NCBI GenBank assembly: GCA_964354285.1
Contig: CAYGYR010000001.1
Location: forward strand, 518,424-582,423
Reading direction: 5' to 3'
Source of the DNA: an uncultured Methanosarcinales archaeon
GTDB lineage: Archaea > Nanobdellota > Nanobdellia > Woesearchaeales > ARS49
Length of the DNA stretch: 64,000 nt
Both the position numbers and the translations under genes were made by a program. The notes under the pieces are model-generated. The model worked only from the letters and a program-made list of their open reading frames with translations. It did not search any database and had not been told where the DNA came from. Each line of letters begins with the position of its first letter. The stretch's first letter is position 1. Shown here piece by piece: positions 8,160-55,979 of this stretch.

Positions 8160-11036
8160 ATGGATCTGGGGGAGAGAATTAATGAGCTTGAGCAGAAGCT
8201 CCATTCATTTATAAAAAATGATGAGCTAGAGAAAGCATCAGAACTCATTCTTGATAAAAAAGATGAAGCAGTCAAGCTCACTGAAAATTATGTTCCGGAA
8301 AGCGCCTTGAAAGCATTAAAAATAAAATTCGCGCTTCACTGGCCAGATGGGAGCGGCTCCTATGGTTCTCACGAAGATTATGATCAGCAGAATATAACAA
8401 GGAGAAAACTATTCGGTCTTGAACATGATTTGCTAAGCGTGCACAATCCCAGAAGGGCGGAAAAATTATTTGCAGAGGCAAAACCGAGACTTGAGAAAGT
8501 ATATGGGGCTGAGTTTGTGTGCAGAGAAGATGTTGCAATAATGAACGGCCTGTATCACAATAGAAAAAAGCTAGAAGAAAAGGCTGAGAACCTGCAGGAA
8601 CTGCTTTCGCGCATAAATCTCTTTAAAGATTTTTCAAAGAAATACCTGAATTTCGGCTGGGAAGAAATAACAGATATGTGGAGGCATGACAGGTTACGTG
8701 AAGATGTGACAGATTCTGCAATTGCGCTTGTTGGCTTAATGAAAGATGTCAAAGACCCATCGAGAATGATGTATCTTAAATCATCTCATGTTAAACATTG
8801 TGATGGCCCGTGGGAGCAAGAGGAATCAGGCATGCCTGACCTGCTTAATACGCACGGCCACGGAAGCATTCTTATCAGTGATTTCGATCACAGCAGTTGG
8901 TCTTCTTATCATGACCATGTTCTAGATTATCTAAGCGCAATCCTGATTGCAGGGAAAGCAGGAAACCTTGATTTCAGGAATGCATTAAATCTTGCATCTT
9001 TCAGTTGGGCACAAAGTGCAGGAATGAATATTGAGAAATACCGCTCTGCCTTTGTTTCAGTTGAGCGTGATCGTGTTCCAAAAAGAATCACAGAGATTGT
9101 TGATGAAACCTTAACAAGGCAGTATCATAACAGGCAGCCAGGGGATGACTGCTCAAGATTCATGAGGCATCTTGCAAATTTTTTTCTTGAAAGGTGGAAA
9201 GCAACTGCTGTTGATTACGACCTGCTTTTTGATTTCCATGTTCCAGAACATAGGGACCTGCAACAAATAGATTTCTTCTACCGCATCAGAGACGGGAAAG
9301 AGCCAGCATATGAAGACAAAAGAGCTTCTATAGGGAGGCTTCCAGATGTGCTCCGCCTGCTTGTCCAGGATGGTGTGCTAAAAGAAAGCGAGATAGACCC
9401 GCCATTAAGAAAAAAATACCTGCTGCCAGATGAAATGAGAGCAATACTCAGCTCTGGAAAACTTCTGACAGATGGAAAAGGAACAGCTGAGTCACTGAAC
9501 CTGCCGATGAAATACAAGCCAGCAGTGATTGCAACAAAAGCAAGCCCTATCAAGCTGATTCCTGAATTCACAGAGAAAAAACTTCCTGCCCTAAAGGATG
9601 ACCTGAGCGCCCTGGCAGGAGTGCTTGACCCGGATAGCTCTTATTATGTCCTTTTCAAAGGAAACCACACACTATTCCTTGCAAAAGAAGAGCACTGGCC
9701 TAATGGCGATCTTGTACTGCAGGACATACAAAGGATAACACTCCTTGAAGACAATGCAAATCCAGCAGACGGAGCTGTCATCAAGCTTCGAGGCCAGAGA
9801 TTCTATGTCAGAAAAGAAAAAAGCCTTGACGAGCAGCAAAAACTGCGAAACGCAATCTTCAGTTCAAAAACAGACCTTGTGCCTGTCAAATGCTATACCT
9901 TTATCACAAGCGCCACACCAGAAGAATTCAGGCAGAACTACTTCAAAGACTTCATGGCGCACGTCATGCTGAACAGGCCATGGCTTGATGCAGAAGCGAT
10001 AATTAAAGACCTGCACAGGATAGATGATATGCCTGCAACAGGCCTGAACGTGGGCATAGGCCCTACAGGACGCACAAGCTTTAGGACATTTGAGGTTGCA
10101 GGCAGATTCTCATTCCAGCTAAAGTACGATAGCATACTTGGCCTTGAAGAGGTCCTCTCGATCGCACTGCAATTGAAAAATTACATAGAGGGAGTCGGCC
10201 TGGGAATACACCAGGAGATAGGCCTTGACGAGTATGGCAGGGCACGGGTAAAAAGAAAACTAGAAGACAGGCTTTTCTACCGGGAAAATTTTGCAGCAAT
10301 TGCAGAATCACTCAACGGGCCAAAGCTTGCAGATGCGCTTGCAGCAGCCCTTGCGTACAAAGAACACGCCTTTTATAGGATTGGAGCATCATATACGCCG
10401 TGCGAGCACTGCGGCAAAAAATATGTTTCTGGCAACATTTACAGGCCTGACCTGCGGGAGCAGTGGTGTGAGGGCATACGAGGTGATGAGCTGCATGCGA
10501 TATCAAGGCATCCTGAAACATTTGAAGACGAGTTCAGTGCATTAAGAAAAATAAGGCGAATGCTCACAGACATAAAACCAGCAGAGCAGCCCATTATATT
10601 TTCACATCCAGGGCTGATGCCTGAATTTGACAGTTTTGCAAGAGCATATGATGATTCTGCTAAAGCAGACAGCGCCAGTTTTGATTTCTGTATGAACACA
10701 GGGGGAGGCCTTTCACATATAGAAGACGAAGACCTGGAGGACGATGTGGAATTAAAAAAATTATCTGCTGAAGAGTCAAATCTGCATTCTAAAATCGCAG
10801 AAAGCAATGATGTTTTAGAAACTGCAAGGGATTTGCTTCAAAAAAAATATGAGTCTTTACAAGGCATTGCTGCTTCTGAAGCAATGAAAGATGAAGATGT
10901 CTGGAAAAACTTGCGCTTCTGGGCAGATCAATTGTTCTTATTTGATATATACAGCTTAGCTGCACCAGAACTGACAGAATGCTTCGCAGAATCCTGGATA
11001 ATGAAAAATCCAGGCAAGCTAATGCGGGACCGTTAA
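8160..11036 (+). CDS. Large uncharacterised protein (959 aa) with His-rich segments and a C-terminal CxxC motif
   Basis: Long uninterrupted ORF; start moved to the first ATG after the hairpin array; no Walker A or other recognisable catalytic motif. Confidence 0.55.
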   Translation: MDLGERINELEQKLHSFIKNDELEKASELILDKKDEAVKLTENYVPESALKALKIKFALHWPDGSGSYGSHEDYDQQNITRRKLFGLEHDLLSVHNPRRAEKLFAEAKPRLEKVYGAEFVCREDVAIMNGLYHNRKKLEEKAENLQELLSRINLFKDFSKKYLNFGWEEITDMWRHDRLREDVTDSAIALVGLMKDVKDPSRMMYLKSSHVKHCDGPWEQEESGMPDLLNTHGHGSILISDFDHSSWSSYHDHVLDYLSAILIAGKAGNLDFRNALNLASFSWAQSAGMNIEKYRSAFVSVERDRVPKRITEIVDETLTRQYHNRQPGDDCSRFMRHLANFFLERWKATAVDYDLLFDFHVPEHRDLQQIDFFYRIRDGKEPAYEDKRASIGRLPDVLRLLVQDGVLKESEIDPPLRKKYLLPDEMRAILSSGKLLTDGKGTAESLNLPMKYKPAVIATKASPIKLIPEFTEKKLPALKDDLSALAGVLDPDSSYYVLFKGNHTLFLAKEEHWPNGDLVLQDIQRITLLEDNANPADGAVIKLRGQRFYVRKEKSLDEQQKLRNAIFSSKTDLVPVKCYTFITSATPEEFRQNYFKDFMAHVMLNRPWLDAEAIIKDLHRIDDMPATGLNVGIGPTGRTSFRTFEVAGRFSFQLKYDSILGLEEVLSIALQLKNYIEGVGLGIHQEIGLDEYGRARVKRKLEDRLFYRENFAAIAESLNGPKLADALAAALAYKEHAFYRIGASYTPCEHCGKKYVSGNIYRPDLREQWCEGIRGDELHAISRHPETFEDEFSALRKIRRMLTDIKPAEQPIIFSHPGLMPEFDSFARAYDDSAKADSASFDFCMNTGGGLSHIEDEDLEDDVELKKLSAEESNLHSKIAESNDVLETARDLLQKKYESLQGIAASEAMKDEDVWKNLRFWADQLFLFDIYSLAAPELTECFAESWIMKNPGKLMRDR

Positions 11037-14993: not shown

Positions 14994-16118
14994 ATGGATT
15001 TTATAAAACCGATAAATTCTGCTGAGCAGCAACAGGCACAGCAACAGACTGTTAAGCCGCAAGTGACAAGAGCAAGCTGTGACGAGGAGCTTGAAGAGCT
15101 TCTTGCAAAGCAGAGAGCAAGCATAAAAGTTGTTGGATGCGGTGGCGGCGGAAACAACACAGTTGACAGGATGTCAGAGGTTGGCATCATTGGCGCTGAA
15201 ACAATTGCAATAAATACAGACGCTCAGGATCTTCTATACACAACAGCTGACAAAAAAATTCTCATAGGACGAGAGGTAACAAAAGGCCTGGGAGCAGGCT
15301 CTAACCCAAAAGTCGGAGAGGAAGCAGCGCGGGAAAATGAGCATGACATAAAAAAAGCCATAGAGGGCTCTGACATGGTCTTCATAACCTGCGGCCTTGG
15401 CGGCGGCACAGGAACAGGCAGCGCTCCTGTGGTTGCTGAAATAGCTAAAAAAATGGGCGCACTGACTGTCGCGATAGTCACAATGCCGTTTACGATGGAA
15501 GGAAACAGGCGATATGAAAATGCTGTAACAGGGCTTGAAAAACTTGAGCAGATGGTTGATACACTTATAGTCATTCCAAACGACAAGCTATTGGAGCTTG
15601 CCCCTGATTTGCCGCTGCAGACTGCATTCAAGGTAGCAGATGAAATCCTGACAAATGCAGTTAAAGGAATCGCAGAACTGGTCACGAAAGTCGGCTTGGT
15701 CAATCTTGACTTTGCAGACATAAGGGCGGTCATGGCAAACGGAGGAGTCGCATTGATTGGCGTCGGCGAAAGTGACTCTGAAAACAGGGCAGTAGAAGCT
15801 GTTGAAAAAGCACTGAACAATCCACTTCTTGACGTAGAGATAGCAGGAGCAACAGGAGCGCTGATTAATGTCGCAGGAAGCAAAGACTTGACACTATCAG
15901 AAGCAAGAAAAGTAGTAGAGGCAGTATCTGCCAAGCTATCAGAAGACGCAAAAATAATCTGGGGAGCACAGATATACGATGACCTTGATCATATTCTAAA
16001 AGTAATGCTGATAATAACCGGAGTGAAATCACCACAGATATTCGGCAAAGAGAAAAAAATGTCTGATGGCCAGAAAAAAGAAATTGAGAACGAACTAGGG
16101 ATAGAGTTCGTGGATTAA
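14994..16118 (+). CDS. ftsZ: Cell division GTPase FtsZ (paralog 1)
   Basis: [14 protein letters not shown] and GGGTGTG tubulin signature motifs. Confidence 0.95.
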
Positions 16119-33058: not shown

Positions 33059-33367
33059 CTATAATTTTTGATTGTACTCTTTCTGTAATAATAATGTGTA
33101 TATGAACAGCGAGATTATAATCAGCTCAAAGAATCCATTAATGTGCATAGGAATGCTTATCATTCCTGCTGCCCTGAGCACTGTCAGCACTTCCTCAACT
33201 ATGAATACAAACAGGGCGATAAAAATTATTTTCCAAGGCTTCAGGTAAACCTTCTTGTTCTTTACAGGCGTGTTGAACAATTTGATGAAAAGATACACTG
33301 TTATGATTACAAGCACAAGATTATAGTAAGGGGCAGCCAAGCCAAGCGCAACTGTGAGCTCGCTCAT
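33059..33367 (-). CDS. Small 3-TM membrane protein
   Basis: About 100 aa; tandem paralog of 33368..33670. Confidence 0.4.
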   Translation of the reverse strand: MSELTVALGLAAPYYNLVLVIITVYLFIKLFNTPVKNKKVYLKPWKIIFIALFVFIVEEVLTVLRAAGMISIPMHINGFFELIIISLFIYTLLLQKEYNQKL

Positions 33368-33670
33368 TCAGTCCGCCCCCTTTGTTATGTTTATTTGAAT
33401 TATGAGCGCAGCTATCACAAACAAGAGTATGAAGAAGGGAATAATATGAGTCATGTGAGGCGTGCTGTAGATGCCGAATGATTTAAGGGCGCCAACAATC
33501 TCCTCACCCATGAAAATCACGAGGGCAACTATCATCCACTTCCATGCGCTAAGGATTTTTTGCTGCCTAGATGCCTCAATCATGCTGATGGCAATGATTC
33601 CTGCAATTATGGATAAGAATGCAGCTGCAAGCTCTGCAGTGCCTAAAATCCAGTCATATGTTGTAATCAC
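33368..33670 (-). CDS. Small 3-TM membrane protein (paralog)
   Basis: About 100 aa with the same topology; abuts 33059..33367. Confidence 0.4.
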   Translation of the reverse strand: MITTYDWILGTAELAAAFLSIIAGIIAISMIEASRQQKILSAWKWMIVALVIFMGEEIVGALKSFGIYSTPHMTHIIPFFILLFVIAALIIQINITKGAD

Positions 33671-33716: not shown

Positions 33717-34166
33717 TTAAAACTTTTGATTTATAAAGAAGAGAATTAATGCAATAACAAGAAATGAAATCACGCAGATCGTAATCTCTTTTTTGTTTTT
33801 GAGAACCAGGCTTCCTGTCGGAAAGCTGTAAAGAAAAATTGAGGCAGAGACTGGCAGAAACATGCCTGTCAATGATGCCAGGAAAAAAACAAAAGCAAGG
33901 AAAGCATAAGTAATCGCGTGGCGCATCTTTTCATAATAATACAAATAAATGAAAATAATCAGCCCTCCTGCCCACATATAATGGATATTTGTCCTGTTGG
34001 CATACATCAAAAAAACAATTGCGAGCGTGAAAAGAATTTTCTGCAGCCAAACAAAATATTTTTTTCCTGGATTTAGTTCTTCTTTTGCAAAATATCCGAT
34101 AACAGCTCCGCAGATTAAGCCAAGGGCTGTGATTAAAGCAATCAAGGAATAATTCAGGATTTCCAT
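33717..34166 (-). CDS. Membrane protein
   Basis: Four or five TM helices; its start overlaps the end of the Dph2 remnant. Confidence 0.4.
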   Translation of the reverse strand: MEILNYSLIALITALGLICGAVIGYFAKEELNPGKKYFVWLQKILFTLAIVFLMYANRTNIHYMWAGGLIIFIYLYYYEKMRHAITYAFLAFVFFLASLTGMFLPVSASIFLYSFPTGSLVLKNKKEITICVISFLVIALILFFINQKF

Positions 34167-34408
34167 TCAGAATGCCCCCACTGGATCAATAAGTCAACAC
34201 CAAGGCCTTCAACTTGCTTTGGGATATCACACGCCCCAAAACAAGAGCCAAGCCAGATGATTACCTCTGCACCTGTTTTTGACTTCAGCTCATCTGCTAT
34301 GCTTTTTGCTTCTGGCTTCAGGCCATCTGGCAATTGGATACAGACCCTTCTGGCTTTTGCTTTCTTTATTTCCTCTGCTGCTCTTTCAAGCTCTAAATCG
34401 TATTCCAT
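34154..34408 (-). pseudogene. dph2: N-terminal remnant (84 aa) of diphthamide synthesis protein Dph2
   Basis: VCIQLPDGLK...IIWLGSCFGACD...LLIQWGHS matches the Dph2 N-terminus, but the ORF stops after 84 aa where about 330 are expected. Confidence 0.5.
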
Positions 34409-34499: not shown

Positions 34500-34602
34500 C
34501 TTGACTTTTGCGCTATACTGAAAATATGAAACGCAAAAGTTTAGTTTTAGAAAACTATTTAAATCATCTGTCACAACTAAACCACAAGGCGATTAAATAC
34601 TT

Positions 34603-34688
34603 GCCCCCGTAGCTTAACGGTGGAGCGACTGACTGTTATCCATTGGAGAGAAATCAGTAGGTCACCAGTTCGAATCTGGTCGGGGGCG
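34603..34688 (+). tRNA. tRNA-Asn (GTT) with an anticodon-loop intron of about 14 nt
   Basis: Acceptor GCCCCCG/CGGGGGC; T-arm ACCAG-TTCGAAT-CTGGT; anticodon stem ACTGA/TCAGT enclosing CTGTTAT plus the intron. Confidence 0.75.
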
Positions 34689-34693
34689 TATTT

Positions 34694-36277
34694 TCAGTTC
34701 GCTCTTGCGAGCGAGAATTCTTCCTTCATCTTGTTTATCAAGTCTGCCCTGGCATACTGTGCAGCATTCTTTGTTGCATTGTAGAATGCGGTCTCATTTG
34801 ACCTTCCGTGGCACTTGATTACGCAAGTATTAAGGCCCAGCAAAGGAGCACCACCATACGACGATGAATCAAATGTTGCCTTGAGATCGTAGAACATGTC
34901 TTTAAGCAGGTATCCGCCAATTTTTCTTTTATTTTTTCTCACAAAAGAAGGGTCATGGTATATTCCCTTCTTTACAAACTGGAACAATTTATTGACCAGG
35001 GCCTCGCCTTCTTTGAGAATTATATTTCCAATAAAGCCATTTGTGACAAATATGTCAGCATATCCCCCAAAGAGAGCCTCAACTGACTGATTTTTTCTTG
35101 AATCTGGATTAAAAGATTTTTTTAATTCATCAAACAGCCCATTCAGCAACGCCTTGCCTAGCTTTCTCTTTGCATATTGTATTATCCCATTTGAATCCTG
35201 CACGCCTTTTTCAACATGCTGAATTAATTTATCAACAAGTGTTTCCTTCATGCTGAGAATCATTCTTGCACTAAAGCTGTCTGTGATGTAAATATCTGCA
35301 TGCCCGTTAAATAGAGGGTATGGCTCTGCATTTTTCTTGAAGTTTTTTCCAAACTCTGCCTCAAATAACTTATATGCCTCAAGCTCTAGAGCCCTGCCTT
35401 TATTTGACTCCTCACCTATATTGACAAGAGCTATTGTGGGCTCTTTGATTCCTTTGGTTCTCTGCACCTGCTCAATCGCTTTTTTTGCAAGCTCAACCAG
35501 ATATCGTGGGGTGCAGACCGCATCTGCTTTTGGCTTTACAAAATATGCTTTGCCAGTATCATATGCAGGATCTTTTTCTGTGCCCGCACTTCTTATCCAA
35601 GGAATTGAAACTAAATTAAACTCAGCTTCAGCAGCATCCTGCATTTTGCCTGAGCTGCCTATAACCCCAAGATAATTCTGTAGAAAATGCCTTACAAGCT
35701 CCTTGTTTGCTTCTGCCTCTAAATCCATGTACTCCACTTTTTCATCCACATCAACCAGCGCAATTGTAGGCTCACTGACGCCAAGAACATGCTGGACATA
35801 AAGCCTTGCCATGATTGCAAAATCACGCAGATTCTGCGGGGTATAACTCATATTTGCGCCAGCATCAAGCAGATATGAAAATCCAGTAGCGTACTTACCA
35901 TTTACCATTTTAACCCAGGGAAGCGGAATTATGATTGGCGGATTCTCAAACTCTTCTGTGCACATGCCTATCCCCTTCTTGACAGAAGCCATAACAAGCT
36001 TTGTGTTGTTTGCAGTGACTATTGCATCTATTTCCTGCTTATTGCTTAACTCAGTAAGAACCCTCAGTGCTGCGCCTTTGCTTTTTTTGGTGGTGTTTGC
36101 CGCAATTAATCTTTCTAGAGAATGCTTGGCGCAGAATTCTTTAATTTCAGCAGCATCTCCAGGAATGACGATTTCAATGCATTTGTCTTCCTCGAGAGCT
36201 CTCTTTGCACCATAGAGCGCGGGATGTCCTTCAACCTCACTTGTCGGATCAAGCCCTATTCTAACATAATTTGTCAT
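34694..36277 (-). CDS. plsX: PlsX-like phosphate acyltransferase family protein with an internally duplicated C-terminal module
   Basis: TANNTKLVMA (GNTG-like), AGANM; the EPTIALV(D/N)...EE and ADI(Y/F)(I/V)T(D/N)(S/G)F motifs each occur twice; ends in YGGAPLLGL. Confidence 0.55.
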   Translation of the reverse strand: MTNYVRIGLDPTSEVEGHPALYGAKRALEEDKCIEIVIPGDAAEIKEFCAKHSLERLIAANTTKKSKGAALRVLTELSNKQEIDAIVTANNTKLVMASVKKGIGMCTEEFENPPIIIPLPWVKMVNGKYATGFSYLLDAGANMSYTPQNLRDFAIMARLYVQHVLGVSEPTIALVDVDEKVEYMDLEAEANKELVRHFLQNYLGVIGSSGKMQDAAEAEFNLVSIPWIRSAGTEKDPAYDTGKAYFVKPKADAVCTPRYLVELAKKAIEQVQRTKGIKEPTIALVNIGEESNKGRALELEAYKLFEAEFGKNFKKNAEPYPLFNGHADIYITDSFSARMILSMKETLVDKLIQHVEKGVQDSNGIIQYAKRKLGKALLNGLFDELKKSFNPDSRKNQSVEALFGGYADIFVTNGFIGNIILKEGEALVNKLFQFVKKGIYHDPSFVRKNKRKIGGYLLKDMFYDLKATFDSSSYGGAPLLGLNTCVIKCHGRSNETAFYNATKNAAQYARADLINKMKEEFSLARAN

Positions 36278-36348
36278 ATACCTTTTTGATTTATTTTATT
36301 TCGTTTTTAAAGCTTTCGTCTAAATAAGCTGTTTTTCTGTAAAAAAAA

Positions 36349-36422
36349 TGGGCCTGCCGTGATTCGAACACGGGACCTCACGATTATCAGTCGTGCGCTC
36401 CACCAGACTAAGCTACAAGCCC
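36349..36422 (-). tRNA. tRNA-Ile (GAT)
   Basis: Minus-strand cloverleaf: acceptor GGGCTTG/CAGGCCC, anticodon stem CACGA/TCGTG with loop CTGATAA, T-arm CCGTG-TTCGAAT-CACGG. Confidence 0.85.
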
Positions 36423-36537: not shown

Positions 36538-38043
36538 ATGCAGAGCATCAAAGTCGAAGAGAAATCAGGAGAGCCTGTCATAAACCTGGCTCTAGACACG
36601 ATATCCAAGAAGAAACAGGCTCTTGTCTTCGTAAATGCAAAGCGCTCTGCTGAGAAGTGCGCAGAGGATATAAGCAAGAAAATAAAAGAAACAAGCCAGG
36701 AATTAACAGAACTCTCTGAAAAAGCACTCGGCGCGCTAAGCAGGCCGACAAAACAGTGCGAAAGGCTTGCAAAATGCCTTGCAAAAGGAATAGCTTTCCA
36801 CCATGCAGGACTGCATTCAAAACAAAAAGACCTGATTGAAGAAAATTTCAGAAAAGGAAAAGTAAAGATAATCTGCTGCACCCCAACACTTGCTGCAGGA
36901 GTTGATTTGCCCGCATTCCGCTCAATCATCCGCGATGTGAAAAGATACACGAGCATGGGAATGCAGCACATCCCTGTCTTGGAATACCTGCAGATGGCAG
37001 GAAGAGCAGGAAGGCCTTCATTTGACGCTTATGGTGAAGCAATACTTATTGCAGGCACTGATGCTGAAAAAAAAGCAATATACGAAAAATTCGTGCTTGG
37101 AGAGCCAGAAGAAGTTTATTCAAAGCTCGCAGTAGAGCCTGTCTTAAGAACATACTTATTGTCCCTTATTTCAACAAAAGTGATACAATCACAGGAGGAG
37201 ATATACACTTTCTTTGGAAAAACATTCTGGGCCCACCAGTTCAAGGACACGGCAAAGTTGAGAAAGAAAATAGACCAGATGCTGAAACTGCTCGAGGAAT
37301 GGGAGTTCATACAGCCGTTAAGCGGAAGCTACAATGCAACACTGTTCGGCAAGAGAGTTGCAGAGCTTTACATTGACCCTTTAACTGCGCATCATTTCAT
37401 CCATTGCCTGCAGATGGCAAAAGACACGAAAATAATGCCGATGTCCTTGCTTGTACTGGTTTCTAACACTCTTGAGATGACTCCGCAGCTGAGAGTCAAG
37501 ACCAAAGAATATGACGAAATACAAGAGCACATTGCAAAACACGAAAGTCACATGATTGACAAGGAGCCCAGCATGTTTGAGCCAGAATACGAGGATTACA
37601 TAAATGCATTCAAGACAGCCATGATGTTTGATGAGTGGATAAACGAGAAAGATGAGGAGCAGCTTCTTGAGCAGTATGACATAAGGCCAGGAGAGACCAG
37701 GGCAAAGCTTGAGAAGGCAGAGTGGCTTCTTTATGCATTGTCTGAAGTTGCAAGAATCAACCAGCAGCAATTCATCCTTAAAGACATTGCAAAACTAAGA
37801 TTCAGGCTAAAGCACGGCGCAAAAGAAGAATTAATACCCTTGCTAAGATTGAAAAACATAGGCAGGATAAGAGCAAGAAAAATGTTCAGGGCAGGTGTAA
37901 AGGATTTAGGTGATGTGAAGAAAACACCCCATGAACAGCTTTCAGTAATTCTTGGAAGCAAAAAAATAGCACTTGATATCAAAGAGCAGGTCGGGGAGAA
38001 GATAGTGGAAGAAAAAGATGGAACCCTGGAAAAGTTCAGTTGA
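36538..38043 (+). CDS. Hel308/Ski2-like helicase, C-terminal portion only (RecA2, winged helix, ratchet, HhH); N-terminal motor domain absent
   Basis: Begins at ALVFVNAKRSAE (start of RecA domain 2); HHAGL and TPTLAAGVDLPA motifs; no Walker A or DEAH box; only 115 nt upstream before tRNA-Ile. Confidence 0.6.
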   Translation: MQSIKVEEKSGEPVINLALDTISKKKQALVFVNAKRSAEKCAEDISKKIKETSQELTELSEKALGALSRPTKQCERLAKCLAKGIAFHHAGLHSKQKDLIEENFRKGKVKIICCTPTLAAGVDLPAFRSIIRDVKRYTSMGMQHIPVLEYLQMAGRAGRPSFDAYGEAILIAGTDAEKKAIYEKFVLGEPEEVYSKLAVEPVLRTYLLSLISTKVIQSQEEIYTFFGKTFWAHQFKDTAKLRKKIDQMLKLLEEWEFIQPLSGSYNATLFGKRVAELYIDPLTAHHFIHCLQMAKDTKIMPMSLLVLVSNTLEMTPQLRVKTKEYDEIQEHIAKHESHMIDKEPSMFEPEYEDYINAFKTAMMFDEWINEKDEEQLLEQYDIRPGETRAKLEKAEWLLYALSEVARINQQQFILKDIAKLRFRLKHGAKEELIPLLRLKNIGRIRARKMFRAGVKDLGDVKKTPHEQLSVILGSKKIALDIKEQVGEKIVEEKDGTLEKFS

Positions 38044-40367: not shown

Positions 40368-40460
40368 GCCCCTGTAGTATAGCTTGGATAGTACGCGAGG
40401 TTGCGGACAGCGTGTAAATGCAAAAACCTTGAAACTGGGGTTCAAATCCCCGCAGGGGCG
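40368..40460 (+). tRNA. tRNA-Arg (GCG) with an anticodon-loop intron of about 19 nt
   Basis: Acceptor GCCCCTG/CAGGGGC; anticodon stem CGAGG/CCTTG around TTGCGG plus intron; T-loop TTCAAAT. Confidence 0.7.
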
Positions 40461-40521: not shown

Positions 40522-41799
40522 ATGCAGGAATACTATCTGTCCCGAAATGCCAACAGCGAGGAATCAATAAAACTTTTTCTTAGAGATATTGGCAAACAAG
40601 AGATTCTCAAAAAAGAAGAAGAATTCGCATTGGCAGAGCAGATGGCGTACTACAAGAAAGAGATAATCCTAAACTTGTGCAGGCTTCCTGACTACAAAAA
40701 CTGCCTTGAAGACAGGTTAAAAGAATACAATGCTTATTGCGGGCAGATTGGAAAAAAAGAGCAGATTGAGAAGATACTCAATGACAAAACAAAAGGTGTT
40801 GAAACACGCCTCAAGTCTTGCATGGAACAAGTTGACAGAATAAACGCACGCTTAGCCTATCTTGCAAAAAATAGCAGCAGCGTTGGTGTGAGAAAGATAA
40901 CTAGCCAATTAAGAATCCATAAGCATAATCTGATAAATGATCTTGATTTTCCTCGCGACTTCATCTACAGGCTTATATTTGACCTGAAAGAAGCAAATCT
41001 TGGCAGGAGGTATGATGCAATAACAGAGAGAGTATACAAGCTCAATGAGTGTTATAATTCTGCTTTTGAGCTGTTTTCCAACTCAAATCTTAGGCTTGTT
41101 GTGAGTATTGCGAAAAAATATAGGTTCAGGGGATTTACTTTCGGAGACCTTATCAACGAGGGATGCTTTGGCCTGATAAGAGCCATAAACAAGTATGATT
41201 ACAAAAGGGGATATAAGTTCTCCACATACGCAACTTGGTGGATAAGGCAGGCAATACTTCGCGCTCTGGCTGACAAGGCAAATCTCAGAAGGATTCCAAT
41301 CCACATACTTGAGAAAAGAAACCTCATCAGTAAAGCAAGAGCTTGCCTCAGGGAAAAATCAGATGAAACACCCACTGTTGATCAGCTGGCAGAAGAAGCG
41401 AATATGTCTATTGCGGAAGCAGAGAACATTGAGAATGTATTTTCACGCAAGACAATCTCTCTTGATAAGCCTGCTAAAGATGACGATGATGATTACGGCA
41501 GCATGGTTGACTTTATGGTTGATGATAAATCTGCAAATCCTCCAAAGGAAGCAATAAGAAATGATATGAAGATAACAGTGCATAAAGTTCTCAATAATGC
41601 ACTTGACAGCAGGGAGCAAGAGATAATAAAACTAAGATACGGCATACCTGACGGCGCAAAATACACCCTTGAGGAAGTAGGCAGGATTTTCAGGGTCTCA
41701 AAGGAAAGAATCAGGCAGATAGAAGCAAAAGCAATGAGCAAACTGCAGCATCCTAGAAGCCCAAAGCTAAAAGCTTTTCTTGAGAAAGTAGGCAGATGA
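40522..41799 (+). CDS. Bacterial-type sigma-70 family RNA polymerase sigma factor (regions 1.2, 2, 3 and 4 present)
   Basis: [11 protein letters not shown] (region 1.2); [13 protein letters not shown]...[37 protein letters not shown] (region 2); [26 protein letters not shown] (region 4 HTH). The larger ORF start overlaps the tRNA, so the start is set at M47. Confidence 0.8.
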
Positions 41800-45764: not shown

Positions 45765-46838
45765 ATGGATATACTGGTAGAAAATGCAAAAGAAACAAGC
45801 CAGAGCCAAGACTTTTCTGACCTAAAAGTTGGCCAGGCAAATATAAAGGTAATAGGCAGTGGTGGAGCAGGAAATAATATGGTAACCTGGCTCTATAAAA
45901 GAGGAATAAAAGGAGCTGAAATAATTGCGTGCAACACAGACAAGCAACACCTTCAGATATCTGAGGCAGACAAAAAATTTATAATCGGAAGAGAGCTAAC
46001 TAGAGGGCTCGGCTGCGGTGGCTTTCCAAAGAAAGGAGCTGAGGCTGCACAGGAGAGCATGAGTGAATTAAAAGATGCTCTGAAAAATGCTGACATGGTC
46101 TTTGTCTGCGCAGGAATGGGCGGAGGCACAGGAACAGGCTCTGCACCAGTCATTGCACAAATCGCAAAAGACATGGGAGCAATAGTGATAGGAACAGTAA
46201 CCATGCCATTCAACATTGAAAGGGCAAGGGTAGAGAAAGCAGAATTCGGCCTTGAGCAACTAAGAAAATATTCTGATACTGTAATAGTAATTGACAACAA
46301 CAGGCTAGTCGCAATCGCAGGAAACCTGCCAATACAGCAGGCATTTGCAGTCGCGAACGAGCTTGTCGCAACAATGATAAGAGGAATCGTCGAAACAATA
46401 GCACTGCCAAGCCTTGTCAACCTAGACTTTGCAGACGTCAAAGCAATAATGACAAACGGCGGAGTAGCTGCAATAGGCGTCGGAAGCTCTGACACAAACA
46501 ACAGAGTTGAGGAAGCAACAAAGGGAGCACTTGAGAACCCACTGCTTGACATCAACTATGAGGGAGCAACAGGAGCGCTGCTTCACATCTGGGGCGGCCC
46601 GGATATGACGCTTGAAGAGATTAACAGAGTAGGAGAGCTTGTCACAGCAAACATGGATGAGGATGCAAACGTCATCTGGGGAGCAAGAGTCACAGATGAC
46701 ATGAAAGGAAAGCTCATGGTGATGACAATCATCACAGGAGTGAACTCGCAATGGATAATGGGCAAGACAACTGCTCAAACCAAAGCAGCTGCTAAGGCAG
46801 AGATTGAAGACGCTTTAGGAATCGAAATCCTAAATTGA
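45765..46838 (+). CDS. ftsZ: Cell division GTPase FtsZ (paralog 2)
   Basis: GSGGAGNN, GLGCGG and GGGTGTG motifs; C-terminal EIEDALGIEILN peptide parallels the ftsZ1 C-terminus. Confidence 0.9.
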   Translation: MDILVENAKETSQSQDFSDLKVGQANIKVIGSGGAGNNMVTWLYKRGIKGAEIIACNTDKQHLQISEADKKFIIGRELTRGLGCGGFPKKGAEAAQESMSELKDALKNADMVFVCAGMGGGTGTGSAPVIAQIAKDMGAIVIGTVTMPFNIERARVEKAEFGLEQLRKYSDTVIVIDNNRLVAIAGNLPIQQAFAVANELVATMIRGIVETIALPSLVNLDFADVKAIMTNGGVAAIGVGSSDTNNRVEEATKGALENPLLDINYEGATGALLHIWGGPDMTLEEINRVGELVTANMDEDANVIWGARVTDDMKGKLMVMTIITGVNSQWIMGKTTAQTKAAAKAEIEDALGIEILN

Positions 46839-51670: not shown

Positions 51671-53593
51671 TTACAAAATATCAACTAATTTTATGCACAT
51701 CTTTATCGCATCGCTGCAGTTGTCCATCTTTTTTGAAAGCTTATGGTCATTTGTTGCTTTTTTTACCTGCGAAACCTTGTCTAAAAGAGTCCTGTAAAAT
51801 CTCAATAAATCGCCTTCTGGCAATTGCGTGTTCTCAATCACCTTAAAGATATCCTCGCCATGAAAACAAGGATCGATTAATGCAGTCATTTTAATGATAT
51901 TATCAAAACGCTTTTCAGCCTTGAGATAATCATTTCCATTCAGTTTTGATTTTAATTTTTCTATTGATTTATCAGGATATACCTGTTTGAACTCCTCTTC
52001 TTCCCTGGATTCAAAACATATGCATGCTATCAGCAGCAGCAAATGGTATTCATCAAGATCCTCATAGAATTTGCCAAAGAATATCTCACCCATTAAAAAT
52101 TCATCACAATATATTTTTGATGCAAAAATCCCTTTTTCAGTGAGGCAATCATCTTTTAAATATCCTAGTTTAGTCAGCTTTTTCTTCAAATTATCAAAGG
52201 CATTATGGCTTTTCATATTCCTTCTCTTATCAAAGTTCTTGCCGTATCTCTGGTAAGAATCAAAGCTTTCGCATAATATCTCCGCAATTTCAGGAACAGT
52301 GTGCCTTTGGATCATATTTAATACTGTGTTAGGGGAAATCTTGAACTGCGAGTTTATCGGTTCAGTGTCTTTTGCGATCATCTTTTTAATCTTGTTATAC
52401 TCAAAATCATTCCTGTTTATCATAGGTATAACATATCCTATCTTGTCAATCCCCCTGCGCCCTGCGCGCCCCGCAATCTGGAAAAACTCTTTCGATGAAA
52501 TATATCTGAAATTAAATCCATCAAATTTCCGTAAAGTCTCAAAACAAACAGTCTTTGCAGGCATGTTAATCCCCACAGCAAATGTTTCAGTGGTATACAA
52601 AACTTTAATCAGGCCAAGAGAGAATAATTCCTCGACAATGTCTTTTAAAATCGGGATAAGGCCTGCATGATGAAATCCTATGCCCTTTGACAGTGTTTTT
52701 TTAAGGAGCATTGTTGATTTGAGAGTATTTATTTCCGGGGGCGATTCACTCAGCCTTTCTCTTACCATCTTGATTATTTCCAAATTAGTCTCAAATACGC
52801 CGCAAGTATAAAGCTCATCAGCCATCTTCTCGCATTTTGATCTTGAGAAACTGAAAAACAAGCATGGCAGTTTGTCATAAATATCCTTGATAAGCTCAAT
52901 ATGTGAAGCAGTTTTGATTCTTTTATGCCAATGCCTTGATTTTCCCATAACACTGTCATAATCAGGTATCTCTGCAATGTCTTTAATTTCATTAAGCGAG
53001 GATATGCCTAGCTCAAAATCATAAAAATTTGTTTTTAATGGCACGGGCCGTTCAGCATGCTCGATTACTTGAACCTTGTGATTTTTTATAACACTGATCC
53101 AGTCAGCAAATTCTCTTGCGTTGGGGATAGTTGCAGAAAGGCACAAAAATCTGGTGCTTGACTTTGAAAATATTATAGATTCTTCCCAAACATACCCTCT
53201 TTCAATATCACTAATAAAATGAATCTCATCAAAAATCACGTAAGAGATGTTCTTTATTATGTCATCATCTGACATAAGCATATTTCTATAAATCTCAGTA
53301 GTCATTATAAGAATAGTTGCACCAGGATTTTTCACAGTATCTCCTGTCAATAATCCTATATTCTCTTCACCGTAATCCTTGCAAAAATCTTTGTATTTTT
53401 GGTTTGAAAGCGCCTTGATTGGCGCAGTGTAGATAACTTTTATGCCCTTTTTGATATCGCGGCTGATAATATAATCAGCAATCAAGGTTTTTCCAGAACC
53501 TGTCGGAGCGCTCACTATCACAGAATAGTTTTTTTCAATTGCAATAATGGCTTCTTCCTGAAACTTGTCAAGCTGCAATCCCTTAAAAATCAT
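51671..53593 (-). CDS. Ski2-like DExH-box helicase
   Basis: Walker A APTGSGKT, DEIH box, HHAGL motif. Confidence 0.85.
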   Translation of the reverse strand: MIFKGLQLDKFQEEAIIAIEKNYSVIVSAPTGSGKTLIADYIISRDIKKGIKVIYTAPIKALSNQKYKDFCKDYGEENIGLLTGDTVKNPGATILIMTTEIYRNMLMSDDDIIKNISYVIFDEIHFISDIERGYVWEESIIFSKSSTRFLCLSATIPNAREFADWISVIKNHKVQVIEHAERPVPLKTNFYDFELGISSLNEIKDIAEIPDYDSVMGKSRHWHKRIKTASHIELIKDIYDKLPCLFFSFSRSKCEKMADELYTCGVFETNLEIIKMVRERLSESPPEINTLKSTMLLKKTLSKGIGFHHAGLIPILKDIVEELFSLGLIKVLYTTETFAVGINMPAKTVCFETLRKFDGFNFRYISSKEFFQIAGRAGRRGIDKIGYVIPMINRNDFEYNKIKKMIAKDTEPINSQFKISPNTVLNMIQRHTVPEIAEILCESFDSYQRYGKNFDKRRNMKSHNAFDNLKKKLTKLGYLKDDCLTEKGIFASKIYCDEFLMGEIFFGKFYEDLDEYHLLLLIACICFESREEEEFKQVYPDKSIEKLKSKLNGNDYLKAEKRFDNIIKMTALIDPCFHGEDIFKVIENTQLPEGDLLRFYRTLLDKVSQVKKATNDHKLSKKMDNCSDAIKMCIKLVDIL

Positions 53594-53688: not shown

Positions 53689-54918
53689 TTATCTTCTAAA
53701 ACTAGGCCTACGCCTGAATTTAGATTTAAAATCTCTGCGAAAAGGCCTTTGCTGTTTTGGTGCGGGCTTAGCAGCTGCGCCGACAGCATTTTTTGCATAT
53801 TCTGAATGGTATGCATGCTGCATAACCTCAATCTTTTGCCTAATCAGCTTTTCAATATCGCGAAGAAAATCTCTTTCATCTGCTGCGCAAAAAGAATACG
53901 CTGTGCCTTCTGCCCCTGCTCGTGCAGTCCTGCCTATCCTATGGACATAGCTTTCAGGCAGATTAGGAAGCTCAAAATTTATAACATGAGAAATACAGTC
54001 TATATCAATCCCGCGCGCAGCAATGTCTGTAGCAACCAACACTTGTATTTTTCCTGATTTGAAATCAGAAAGCGCCTGTGTTCGCGCATTTTGTGATTTA
54101 TTGCCATGAATTGCATCCACTTGGATGTTATTCTTGTGTAGATATAATGCAACTTTATTTGCACGATGCTTTGTGCGGGTAAACACTAAAACGCGGGTAA
54201 GATGCTCTTGCCTAAGAAGGTCCAATAACAGCTGTTCCTTAGCAGAAGAATCCACAAAAAAAACACATTGTTTTACACTTTCAACAAGGGTTGCTTGTGC
54301 TGCAGCCTCAACATGAACTGGATTTCTAAGAAGTGTTCCGGCAAGATCGCATATCTGAGGAGACATTGTTGCTGAGAAAAAAAGCGACTGGCGCTTTTGC
54401 GGCAATCTGGATATTATTTTTTTGATATCATTGATAAATCCCATATCAAGCATCCTATCAGCTTCATCTAAAACAAAAAATTCAATGTCTTTCAAGCTGA
54501 TTCGGCCTTGATTCATTAAATCAAGCAATCTGCCTGGTGTTGCGATAACAATATCAACACCCTTAGCCAGAGCATTAACCTGTGATCCTTGGCCAACACC
54601 CCCAAAAATGACAGTATGCTTAAATTTAAGAAACTCACCGTATGCAGAAAAACTTTCACCAATCTGTGCTGCAAGCTCCCTAGTTGGCGCAAGGACTAGT
54701 ACACGGATAGTTCGAGGATATTTTTCAGTCATCCTTTGAAGGATAGGCAATACAAATGCAGCAGTTTTGCCTGTTCCTGTTTGAGCTATGCCTATTAAAT
54801 CTCTCCCTTTCAAGAGATCAGGAATAGCTTTTGACTGTATTGGTGTCGGCTCAACATACCCCTGTTTGGCAATTGCCCTTTCAAGAGGCTCTATCAGATT
54901 TAGATTTTTAAATGACAT
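53689..54918 (-). CDS. DEAD-box ATP-dependent RNA helicase (RhlE-like) with a basic C-terminal tail
   Basis: Q-motif, [15 protein letters not shown] and HRIGRTAR motifs. Confidence 0.9.
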
Positions 54919-55073: not shown

Positions 55074-55979
55074 GTGAGAGTCCAATTTAAATCATCAAAA
55101 CAAAGAGAAGTAATTCTGAATTTTAAACAGAATACTGATTTAACTTGGCAAGAACTTGCGGATTATTTGCATGTCAGAAAATCAGCATTATTAACCTGGT
55201 ATCATGAAAAAACTTTGTTGCCGTATGCAATATACATAATATTAGATAAAAAAGGACTGTTCAAAGAGCACATTCTAGAACTTAAAAATGATTGTTGGGG
55301 CCAAAGCAAAGGAGGAATTGCATCAACAGGAACAACAAAAGAAATATCCTTGCCAAGGCCTTGTACAGATTTAGCTGAATTAATCGGCATTGTATTAGGT
55401 GATGGTAATATCCATGAATACATTCAGACTAAAAAAATTAGGACATATATGCTAAGAATAGCGGGAGATTCGAGAAAAGACAGAAATTATCTTGTGACTT
55501 ATGTTGCTCCGCTCTGCGAATGCTTGTTTTCAATCCAGCCAAAATTTTTATATCAAAAACAGAGCAATGAGCTTTTTGTTATATTACACAGCAAGAAAAT
55601 CATTGAGTTCTTTAAAAAAATGGGCTTAACGCCAGGTAACAAAATCAAGAATCGATTAAATATTCCTGGCTGGGTACTCGAAGATGAGACATATCTTCGA
55701 GCATGTTTGCGTGGTTTAATAGATACAGACGGATCTATTTTCAGAATGTCAAATAGAGATCCGCAATTATTGAGAATTAATTTTAGAAATGTAAATAGCT
55801 CTTTGCTTGAAACTGTTTATAAGTCTTTTATTACGTTAGGATTTAAACCGGCACTTGCAAATAATGTAGTTTACTTATCTAGGAAGCAAGATATAGTAAA
55901 CTTTTTAAAAGGCATAGGTTTTTCTAATAGTAAGCATAGGTTAAGGCTTAAGAAGTTCAAAGGCAGCCCTGTAGTGTAG
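55074..55979 (+). CDS. Free-standing double-motif LAGLIDADG homing endonuclease with an N-terminal HTH-like region
   Basis: LIGIVLGDGNI and LRGLIDTDGSIF motifs; the last 15 nt overlap the tRNA-Gln 5' end. Confidence 0.8.
   Translation: MRVQFKSSKQREVILNFKQNTDLTWQELADYLHVRKSALLTWYHEKTLLPYAIYIILDKKGLFKEHILELKNDCWGQSKGGIASTGTTKEISLPRPCTDLAELIGIVLGDGNIHEYIQTKKIRTYMLRIAGDSRKDRNYLVTYVAPLCECLFSIQPKFLYQKQSNELFVILHSKKIIEFFKKMGLTPGNKIKNRLNIPGWVLEDETYLRACLRGLIDTDGSIFRMSNRDPQLLRINFRNVNSSLLETVYKSFITLGFKPALANNVVYLSRKQDIVNFLKGIGFSNSKHRLRLKKFKGSPVV

Follow-up and report, generated by a model that had tools for sequence, protein, structure and literature searches.

A single supported gene, the open reading frame (ORF) 34694..36277 (-), lies between the tRNA-Asn and tRNA-Ile genes in the stretch of DNA from a small DPANN-type (Woesearchaeota-like) archaeon analyzed here (positions 518,424 to 582,423 of contig CAYGYR010000001.1; this whole stretch of 64,000 nucleotides is referred to as the window). 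The gene encodes a 527-aa protein of the PlsX family. ORF analysis, ARAGORN, Rfam and Pfam agreed on this arrangement, as had been proposed in an earlier sequence-only reading of the same DNA. The features of the locus are listed below with their sources, where A1 and A3 denote alignments of this protein with further PlsX-family members, most of them from bacteria (28 in A1 and 118 in A3), AF2 denotes the AlphaFold2 (AF2) model, and L003 to L007 are related loci.

34602..34689 (+), tRNA-Asn(GTT), 88 nt with intron (ARAGORN; Rfam 59.7 bits)
34694..36277 (-), complete coding sequence of a divergent PlsX-family protein, 527 aa, stop codon at 34694-34696
34697..34858 (-), single-copy C-terminal segment, aa 474-527, with YGGAPLLG, CHGRSN and the invariant H490 (alignments A1, A3)
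34859..35113 (-), repeat Y copy 2 (Y2), aa 389-473 (segment BLASTP, alignments, AF2)
35045..35284 (-), insert 2 relative to canonical PlsX, aa 332-411, comprising the Y1 tail and the Y2 head (MAFFT alignment A1)
35114..35341 (-), repeat Y copy 1 (Y1), aa 313-388 (segment BLASTP, alignments, AF2)
35339..35620 (-), repeat X copy 2 (X2), aa 220-313 (segment BLASTP, alignments, AF2)
35450..35767 (-), insert 1 relative to canonical PlsX, aa 171-276, comprising the X1 tail and the X2 head (MAFFT alignment A1)
35657..35941 (-), repeat X copy 1 (X1), aa 113-207 (segment BLASTP, alignments, AF2)
35942..36277 (-), single-copy N-terminal domain, aa 1-112 (alignments A1, A3)
36303..36316 (-), TFB recognition element (BRE)/TATA-like box AAAGCTTTAAAAAC, ~27-35 nt upstream of the plsX ATG (sequence reading and L004 alignment)
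36349..36422 (-), tRNA-Ile(GAT) (ARAGORN; Rfam 67.4 bits)

The tRNA-Ile gene is located 71 nt upstream of plsX on the same strand, is followed by a run of eight T residues, and keeps this position in 5/5 related loci. The tRNA-Asn gene is convergent with plsX at a distance of 4 nt from its stop codon and is also found downstream of plsX in L003. The BRE/TATA-like box, conserved in L004, and the T run after tRNA-Ile suggest that plsX may be transcribed from its own promoter.

The protein matched one Pfam family only, FA_synthesis (PF02504), with 174.2 bits (E 4.7e-51) against a gathering cut-off of 29.1, and the match was broken into three stretches because of the duplications described below. 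The PlsX chains in PDB (three solved PlsX sequences) likewise matched in two to three stretches reusing the same PlsX positions, which is a signature of internal duplication. The top Foldseek matches were the PlsX structures 6a1k, 1u7n and 1vi1, and the predicted structure showed the alpha/beta/alpha core with the protruding helical hairpin of the PlsX fold. The score against TIGR00182, the NCBIfam model of the PlsX equivalog, was 212.3 bits, below the cut-off of 243.4; the composite core without the inserts scored 189.2, the homologues P0002, P0003 and P0004 scored 201.1, 186.6 and 169.7, respectively, and bacterial controls scored 368-390. The protein is a member of the PlsX family, yet does not qualify as a PlsX equivalog.

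A phosphotransacetylase-like identity, which the sequence-only reading had named as an outcome that would speak against PlsX, was rejected, as PF01515 (PTA_PTB) gave no match to this protein at E <= 1 in the Pfam search, and Pta/Ptb structures ranked under every PlsX chain. Both structural and sequence scores toward Pta/Ptb (PF01515) and the PTA domain of MaeB were clearly lower than those toward PlsX, and the long alpha9-alpha10 hairpin stem of PlsX is missing from Pta. Among Woesearchaeota, Pta-AckA is common. PlsX itself was rightly regarded as unexpected in Archaea: Coleman et al. 2019 found no archaeal PlsX, which was reported as one of only two bacterial phospholipid enzymes without an archaeal homologue (PMC6431249).

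Two internal tandem duplications

Segment-versus-segment BLASTP detected two separate, adjacent, in-frame tandem duplications of central segments, giving the layout N-terminal domain, X1, X2, Y1, Y2 and C-terminus, while self-BLASTP of the whole protein gave the diagonal only. In repeat X, aa 131-203 matched aa 241-313 with 37% identity (E 1e-9, offset ~110 aa), the full extent being aa ~117-205 and 224-313. In repeat Y, aa 309-393 matched aa 389-473 with 39% identity (E 4e-19, offset 80 aa). Conservation is highest at EPTIALV in X and at ADI[YF][IV]T[DN] in Y. The repeated motifs noticed in the sequence-only reading were therefore real and well above chance in segment BLASTP; the single duplicated C-terminal module to which they had been attributed was replaced by the two central duplications X and Y.

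An assembly artefact was rejected, as the copies are 37-39% identical and differ at most synonymous positions, and an identical 527-aa protein was found in two further independent assemblies, Logan ERR3804374 and ENA ERZ27248148. Codon-level comparison showed that third codon positions are mostly different between the copies, also within EPTIALV, and recent gene conversion at EPTIALV and ADIYxT was rejected as these positions differ throughout. The repeats are old, and their conservation is at the level of the protein.

The alignments A1 and A3 placed canonical PlsX on aa 1-170, 277-331 and 412-527 of the protein. All 16 of the 16 invariant columns in the 119-sequence alignment were present, and all of them were located in the composite part made of the X1 head, X2 tail, Y1 head, Y2 tail and C-terminus. 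They include D138 and G140 (LLDAGAN), K293 and G294 (EE.xKG), E318 (GN.E), G414, G417, N418 and K422 (GFxGN..K), GAPLLG, and H490. The remaining halves, that is, the degenerate X1 tail, X2 head, Y1 tail and Y2 head, are referred to as the spare halves, and the 527-aa protein as Q. The spare halves lacked the invariants, with DAGAN changed to KPKAD, GEEsNKG to DEKVEYM, GFIGN..K to SFSAR..S, and GN.E to KNQS.

The individual copies showed this division in turn. The head of X1, called functional, retains LLDAGAN, and its tail (EPTIALVDVDEK...) is without the GEE.xKG motif; the head of X2 is degenerate (KPKAD in place of DAGAN), and its tail retains EPTIALVNIGEESNKG with the invariant K293 and G294. 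In Y1, the head retains the GN.E motif (E318) and the ADIYITD strand, and the tail forms a degenerate helical hairpin, with SFSAR in place of GFxGN and S in place of K422. In Y2, the head is degenerate, and the tail has the GFIGN..K..E motif and an alpha9-alpha10-type hairpin with the tip KKGIYHDPSFVRKNKRK. This functional tip is conserved in the clade described below, whereas the spare tip is not.

The AF2 model of the 527-aa protein had a pLDDT of 87.7 and a pTM of 0.86, with low scores confined to aa ~185-215. The strands 115-125 and 128-138 and the helix 147-163 of X1 are mirrored by an extra beta-hairpin and helix in X2 (strands 220-230 and 239-249, helix 257-275; pLDDT 83-95). Similarly, the extra helical hairpin in Y1 (helices 334-360 and 365-389; pLDDT 87-94) mirrors that in Y2 (helices 414-440 and 445-469). 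The model of the homologue P0003 (pLDDT 91.9, pTM 0.90) contained the same extra elements.

Clade members and age of the duplications

An exhaustive HMMER scan over 1.84 billion cluster representatives detected five clade members at E < 1e-80, followed by a jump to bacterial PlsX at ~1e-33. A profile search over 5.8 billion 90%-identity clusters gave six clade clusters, with the score falling from 461 to 214 bits at the clade boundary, before bacterial PlsX. Only 1 of the 185,579 species representatives in GTDB, the Woesearchaeota metagenome-assembled genome (MAG) JAFGHW01, carries the clade gene, and scanning genome and metagenome contigs with the clade profile returned the known Woesearchaeota contig and otherwise bacterial PlsX. 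Within the PlsX (FA_synthesis) family, the gene falls in a divergent clade that is very small and associated with Woesearchaeota. Throughout the clade, DAMGGD is replaced by DPTSEVEG and SAGNTGA by TANNT or TATDT, R112 is lost, and ~15 aa are deleted; the hairpin tip (KKGIY..PSF..K.KRK) is longer, and an archaeal-specific beta-hairpin extension is present.

P0003 (481 aa) is 48% identical to Q, and 53% in the core, and has both duplications with the same boundaries. P0002 (340 aa, 81% core identity) and the fragment P0122 (83% identity) are without both inserts. P0121 is a cluster mate that differs at 3 residues only. Accordingly, inserts 1 and 2 were both present in P0003 and missing from P0002 and P0122, and BLASTN between L004 and the window skipped 35453-35753 at insert 1 and 35066-35279 at insert 2. 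The unduplicated members P0002, P0122 and P0004 (MBN1644806.1, "hypothetical protein, Candidatus Woesearchaeota archaeon") have the same divergent motifs, DPTSEVEG and TANNT/TATDT, and the same tRNA-Ile-plsX-Dph locus, with 53-83% core identity. They differ from Q in their length of 340-346 aa and in having neither insert, and low-complexity inserts unrelated to those of Q are carried by P0122 and P0005 at the X/Y boundary.

These unrelated inserts in P0005 (L007 258-1670) and P0122 are ~25-40 aa long and located exactly at the X/Y boundary, before F.GNAEP, indicating that the surface there tolerates insertions. P0005 has an additional 16-aa insert in the beta-hairpin. Its called start runs through the tRNA-Ile gene, and the true start is probably at MSEYLRIGLDP.

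As judged from the sequences of the copies, both duplications most likely predate the split from P0003 and were followed by loss in the P0002/P0122 lineage through in-register deletion. In neighbor-joining (NJ) analysis, copies at the same position paired across species with 96-97% bootstrap, and within-protein pairing was obtained in <=1%. At 50 positions, both spare halves carry residues absent from all functional archaeal sequences, and at 10 of these the residue is the same in both; the shared derived states include DA>KP, G>A, K>S, F>H and K>E. None of the 9 states specific to Q/P0002/P0122 was present in the spare halves of Q, and 2 of the 25 P0003-specific states were present in those of P0003. 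Codon identity at identical residues was 27/63 between the copies and 46% between Q and P0003, when compared to 172/272 (63%) between Q and P0002 (Fisher p 0.004 for copies versus Q-P0002). P0002 and P0122 are 87% identical and share 7 synapomorphies, versus 4 and 3 for the alternative pairings; they are apparently sisters, and so one loss per insert is enough. The deletions in their lineage took out exactly the degenerate halves, joining HVLG to IKEP and YVTD to GF.

The alternative is that X and Y were duplicated independently in the Q and P0003 lineages, with P0002 and P0122 representing the ancestral state. The number of events is equal to that of gain followed by loss (4 vs 4), and Q is 81-83% identical to the unduplicated forms and 53% identical to P0003. 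Convergence would also account for residues common to the copies of Q or shared with P0002, which are V/Q in YVQHV vs QVQRT, RHFL in the X1 tail, and "IA" in EPTIALV, and the unrelated X/Y-boundary inserts of P0005 and P0122 show a region tolerant of insertions. The case for ancient duplication has its own weak points. Long-branch attraction could inflate the 96-97% NJ bootstraps, and the quartet-informative sites alone were weak (5 : 3 : 2). V/Q in YVQH and RHFL in the X1 tail look lineage-specific, being common to the copies or shared with P0002, and thus fit later duplication or gene conversion. Independent duplication, however, has to explain the same boundaries in Q and P0003, beginning at IPW, as well as the cross-species pairing at 96-97%, the 10/50 derived states common to the spare halves, and the near absence from them of lineage-specific states (0/9 for Q/P0002/P0122 and 2/25 for P0003). 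The synonymous divergence between the copies is moreover at the Q-P0003 level, above that of Q-P0002 (p 0.004). On balance, convergent duplication was considered unlikely.

The inserts of Q and P0003 were similar to each other with z of 11.3 for insert 1 and 12.9 for insert 2 (32-37% identity), and the 4-fold sites between the two genomes were saturated. A similarity of z 11-13 despite this saturation indicates, at the sequence level, that the inserts are under constraint. Ancient duplication with subsequent loss offers a clean example of protein evolution, in which two adjacent duplications arose in a folded enzyme, catalytic motifs were lost complementarily, and the degenerate halves were kept in two lineages and exactly removed in a third.

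Proposed function

Bacterial PlsX is a mushroom-shaped homodimer, in which the alpha9-alpha10 hairpins form a four-helix stem and the tip binds the membrane (PMC6702220, PMC10146087), and its active sites are suspected to lie in cavities at the dimer interface (PMC6702220). Q shares with the bacterial acyl-ACP (acyl carrier protein):phosphate transacylases (B. subtilis 6A1K/1VI1, E. faecalis 1U7N) the motifs DAGAN, EE.xKG, GN.E, GFxGN..K..E, YGGAPLLG and HG.S, as well as the protruding helical hairpin element. In contrast to the ~330 aa of bacterial PlsX, Q has 527 aa because two central segments are tandemly duplicated, and it possesses a second, motif-less hairpin and a second domain-2-like element. 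It lacks DAMGGD, SAGNTGA, S70 and R112, has a ~15-aa deletion in the N-domain, and carries the archaeal-specific beta-hairpin extension after IPW and a hairpin tip ~6 aa longer. Furthermore, the host is an archaeon and the gene lies outside any cluster of the rpmF-plsX-fab-acpP type. Bacterial plsX usually adjoins fab and acpP genes. Q represents an architecture new to a known enzyme family, and it belongs to an archaeal clade that is very rare.

The evidence favors a history in which the central module was doubled, before the lineages of this genome and P0003 separated, by two tandem duplications that are adjacent and in frame. Repeat X corresponds to the beta-hairpin/alpha/beta "domain 2" element, and repeat Y to a strand plus the alpha9-alpha10-type helical hairpin, from which bacterial PlsX builds its dimer stem and membrane-binding tip. 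Complementary degeneration of the copies left a single composite set of invariants, to which the X1 head contributes DAGAN, the X2 tail EE.xKG, the Y1 head GN.E and the Y2 tail GFxGN..K..E. The other halves have lost all invariants but stayed foldable and recognizably conserved between the Q and P0003 lineages. The sister lineage P0002/P0122 most likely dropped exactly the two degenerate inserts later, returning to a canonical ~340-aa protein. In Q, the degenerate halves may serve as a built-in pseudo-partner, in which the second hairpin and the second domain-2-like element are packed on the catalytic one, and this putative pseudo-partner would modify or replace the homodimer interface where the active-site cavities of PlsX lie. 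A built-in structural partner at the dimer interface is our best inference for the degenerate copy.

The enzyme most likely still interconverts acyl-thioester and acyl-phosphate at the membrane surface, because the catalytic core is retained. The donor is probably not acyl-ACP, since the Gly-rich motifs of the N-terminus have been lost and the window contained no ACP gene, and acyl-CoA is the obvious candidate. Taken together, a divergent resident PlsX-family gene with two ancient tandem duplications, complementary degeneration, loss in the sister lineage, a structural pseudo-partner and acyl transacylase activity was regarded as the probable explanation, held with moderate confidence.

Several findings weigh against this explanation, mostly on the side of function. 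All clade members scored 170-212 bits on TIGR00182, under the cut-off of 243.4, and the N-terminal near-invariants of Q are replaced (DAMGGD by DPTSEVEG, RRKKxSS by KKSKGAA, SAGNTGA by TANNTKL, and ERPA by ENPP). M12, G13, D14, S70, G90, G93 and R112, near-invariant in bacterial PlsX, are missing from the whole archaeal clade. The evolution of plsX is also 2-3x faster than that of its neighbors, with 53% core identity versus 75-82%. No match to PlsY, PlsC, ACP, Fab, FakAB or Ack/Buk was found among the 67 ORFs of >=90 aa in the window, and PlsY, PlsC and ACP partners were also not found in the flanks of loci L003-L007. Regular-expression scans of the window for PlsY, PlsC and ACP motifs were empty, which is a weak test. 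As to the pseudo-partner, the AF2 alignment contained one homologue only within the inserts, and the inserts seem dispensable because the sister lineage lives without them.

A second alternative, in line with the functional idea of the sequence-only reading, is that the protein acts as a canonical PlsX together with PlsY and PlsC, whose genes would lie elsewhere in the genome. The archaeon would then make or remodel bacterial-type fatty-acyl phospholipids, for example from host-derived fatty acids. The fold and most motifs of the catalytic core are indeed retained, and the conserved, basic and aromatic hairpin tip (KKGIY..PSF..K.KRK) would suit interfacial binding. Some DPANN bins are reported to contain homologues of PlsC and PlsY (PMC6431249). 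Castelle et al. 2021 described sigma-70 as prevalent in Woesearchaeota, along with the methylerythritol phosphate (MEP) pathway and, in some of them, bacterial fatty-acid-synthesis genes, with PlsX unmentioned (PMC8204110); like these systems, plsX would be a bacterial-origin gene kept in DPANN genomes. However, the whole clade falls under the TIGR00182 cut-off, in contrast to the bacterial controls at 368-390 bits, DAMGGD, SAGNTGA and R112 are lost, and neither the 67 window ORFs nor the flanks of the related loci supplied PlsY, PlsC, ACP, Fab or FakAB. The extreme rarity of the clade is also ill-suited to a core membrane pathway. A canonical role was accordingly judged improbable, to about the same degree as convergent duplication.

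A bolder version of the pseudo-partner would be a single-chain pseudo-dimer with an intramolecular four-helix stem and one live and one dead active-site half, acting as an ACP-independent acyl-phosphate transacylase that would be the entry point for fatty acids from a bacterial host, activating or re-esterifying them. This is conceivable, though we rate it as distinctly unlikely. If true, it would represent a bacterial-type acyl-lipid step in a lipid-auxotrophic DPANN archaeon.

Another possibility is that the gene has no selected function and survives from an old bacterial transfer as a relic, decaying or neutral, with inserts that are tolerated junk. Its evolution is faster than that of the neighbors (53% core identity versus 75-82%), the N-terminal motifs are lost, the inserts are dispensable in the sister lineage, and indel content varies across the clade. 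Against decay, the ORFs are intact in six lineages with saturated synonymous sites, the 16 invariant PlsX columns are retained, and the inserts are 32-37% identical between lineages (z 11-13). The predicted folds are also confident in AF2, and the TATA-like box is conserved upstream. A relic was thus considered very unlikely. A bacterial contaminant or mis-binned sequence, to which the exclusively bacterial PlsX relatives outside the clade might point, was rejected and is effectively refuted by the native base composition, by the position in a 585-kb contig among genes for thermosome, Spt5, Elp3, archaeal Hel308 domain 4, ATP-dependent DNA ligase and intron-containing tRNAs, and by the same neighborhood in >=4 independent assemblies, including the NCBI Woesearchaeota MAG.

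The locus shows that a small lineage with one named member, a Woesearchaeota MAG, has long maintained a divergent PlsX-family gene despite surveys reporting none. The protein would be a concrete candidate for how DPANN archaea lacking lipid biosynthesis obtain or remodel their membranes, although the extreme rarity of the clade limits the general significance.

Conservation of the locus and neighboring genes

The sequence-only reading had regarded the locus as a hotspot of rearrangement or acquisition, bracketed by tRNA genes and flanked by truncated genes. The comparison with related loci did not bear this out. The order in L003 is PHP, methyltransferase, helicase C-half (499 aa), tRNA-Ile, plsX, tRNA-Asn, 84-aa Dph piece and ~146-aa membrane protein, and the stretch from tRNA-Ile onwards recurs in Woesearchaeota L005 and L006. 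The GC content of plsX (0.417) and its GC content at third codon positions (GC3, 0.392) are native when compared with those of the other window genes (0.421+/-0.023 and 0.408+/-0.039, respectively), and no integrase was present. A recently acquired island at a tRNA gene was thus not supported, given the native composition, the conservation of the locus in L003/L005/L006, and neighbors conserved at 75-82%. The locus is conserved and long-resident, not an acquisition hotspot. The conserved locus and native base composition imply that any transfer from Bacteria was ancient.

The sole rearrangement seen at the plsX locus is in L004, where a 1.1-kb insertion (1193-2310) carrying a gene for a 342-aa NAD-dependent epimerase/dehydratase is located between the helicase and tRNA-Ile.

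The supposedly truncated flanking genes, described as a Hel308 C-terminal fragment and a Dph2 remnant, turned out to be conserved forms, with identities between the window and L003 of 75% for the helicase and 82% for the Dph piece. Between the window and L004, the helicase showed 94% amino-acid and 90% DNA identity. Both flanking genes are split or short forms that purifying selection has conserved, not remnants. Split or short genes are common in DPANN. The Hel308-type helicase (501 aa, window 36538-38043 (+)) consists of the C-terminal half only (Helicase_C, HTH_61 and archaeal domain 4), with the same form at L003 7869-9368, and its N-terminal half was not located within the window. In the Woesearchaeota locus L006 (1-2034), the helicase ORF is longer, with an intein carrying a LAGLIDADG domain. 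The 84-aa ORF 34154-34408 (-) matched the Diphthamide_syn (Dph2) model over its first 56 positions only and corresponds to an 82-aa ORF in L005/L006. It overlaps the next ORF, encoding a 149-aa membrane protein, by 13 nt.

That protein is one of three small multi-pass membrane proteins without a Pfam match, encoded at 33059-33367 (-), 33368-33670 (-) and 33717-34166 (-) and consisting of 102, 100 and 149 aa, respectively; the 102- and 100-aa ORFs abut each other and are similar in size. ORFs of 103, 103 and 143 aa occupy the same position downstream of plsX in L005/L006, and L003 has an ORF of 146 aa after the Dph piece.

Introns were suggested in two over-length tRNA genes of the window, tRNA-Asn (88 nt) and tRNA-Arg (93 nt). 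The tRNA-Ile(GAT) gene of L003 (~9836-10000, upstream of plsX) has an intron of ~77 nt directly after the anticodon-loop sequence, which was missed by ARAGORN and visible in the DNA alignment.

The window is otherwise typically archaeal, encoding thermosome, Spt5, Elp3, ATP-dependent DNA ligase and two FtsZ proteins. The two FtsZ paralogues, each with Tubulin and FtsZ_C domains, are encoded at 14994-16118 (+) and 45765-46838 (+). A sigma-70 gene (40522-41799 (+), 425 aa), whose product has the complete bacterial architecture with regions 1.2, 2, 3 and 4, is located just after tRNA-Arg(GCG) (40368-40460), 4 kb from plsX. A free-standing 176-aa ORF at 55449-55979 (+) has a LAGLIDADG_3 homing-endonuclease-like domain and lies ~0.5-3.8 kb from two DEAD-box helicase genes, 53689-54918 and 51671-53593.

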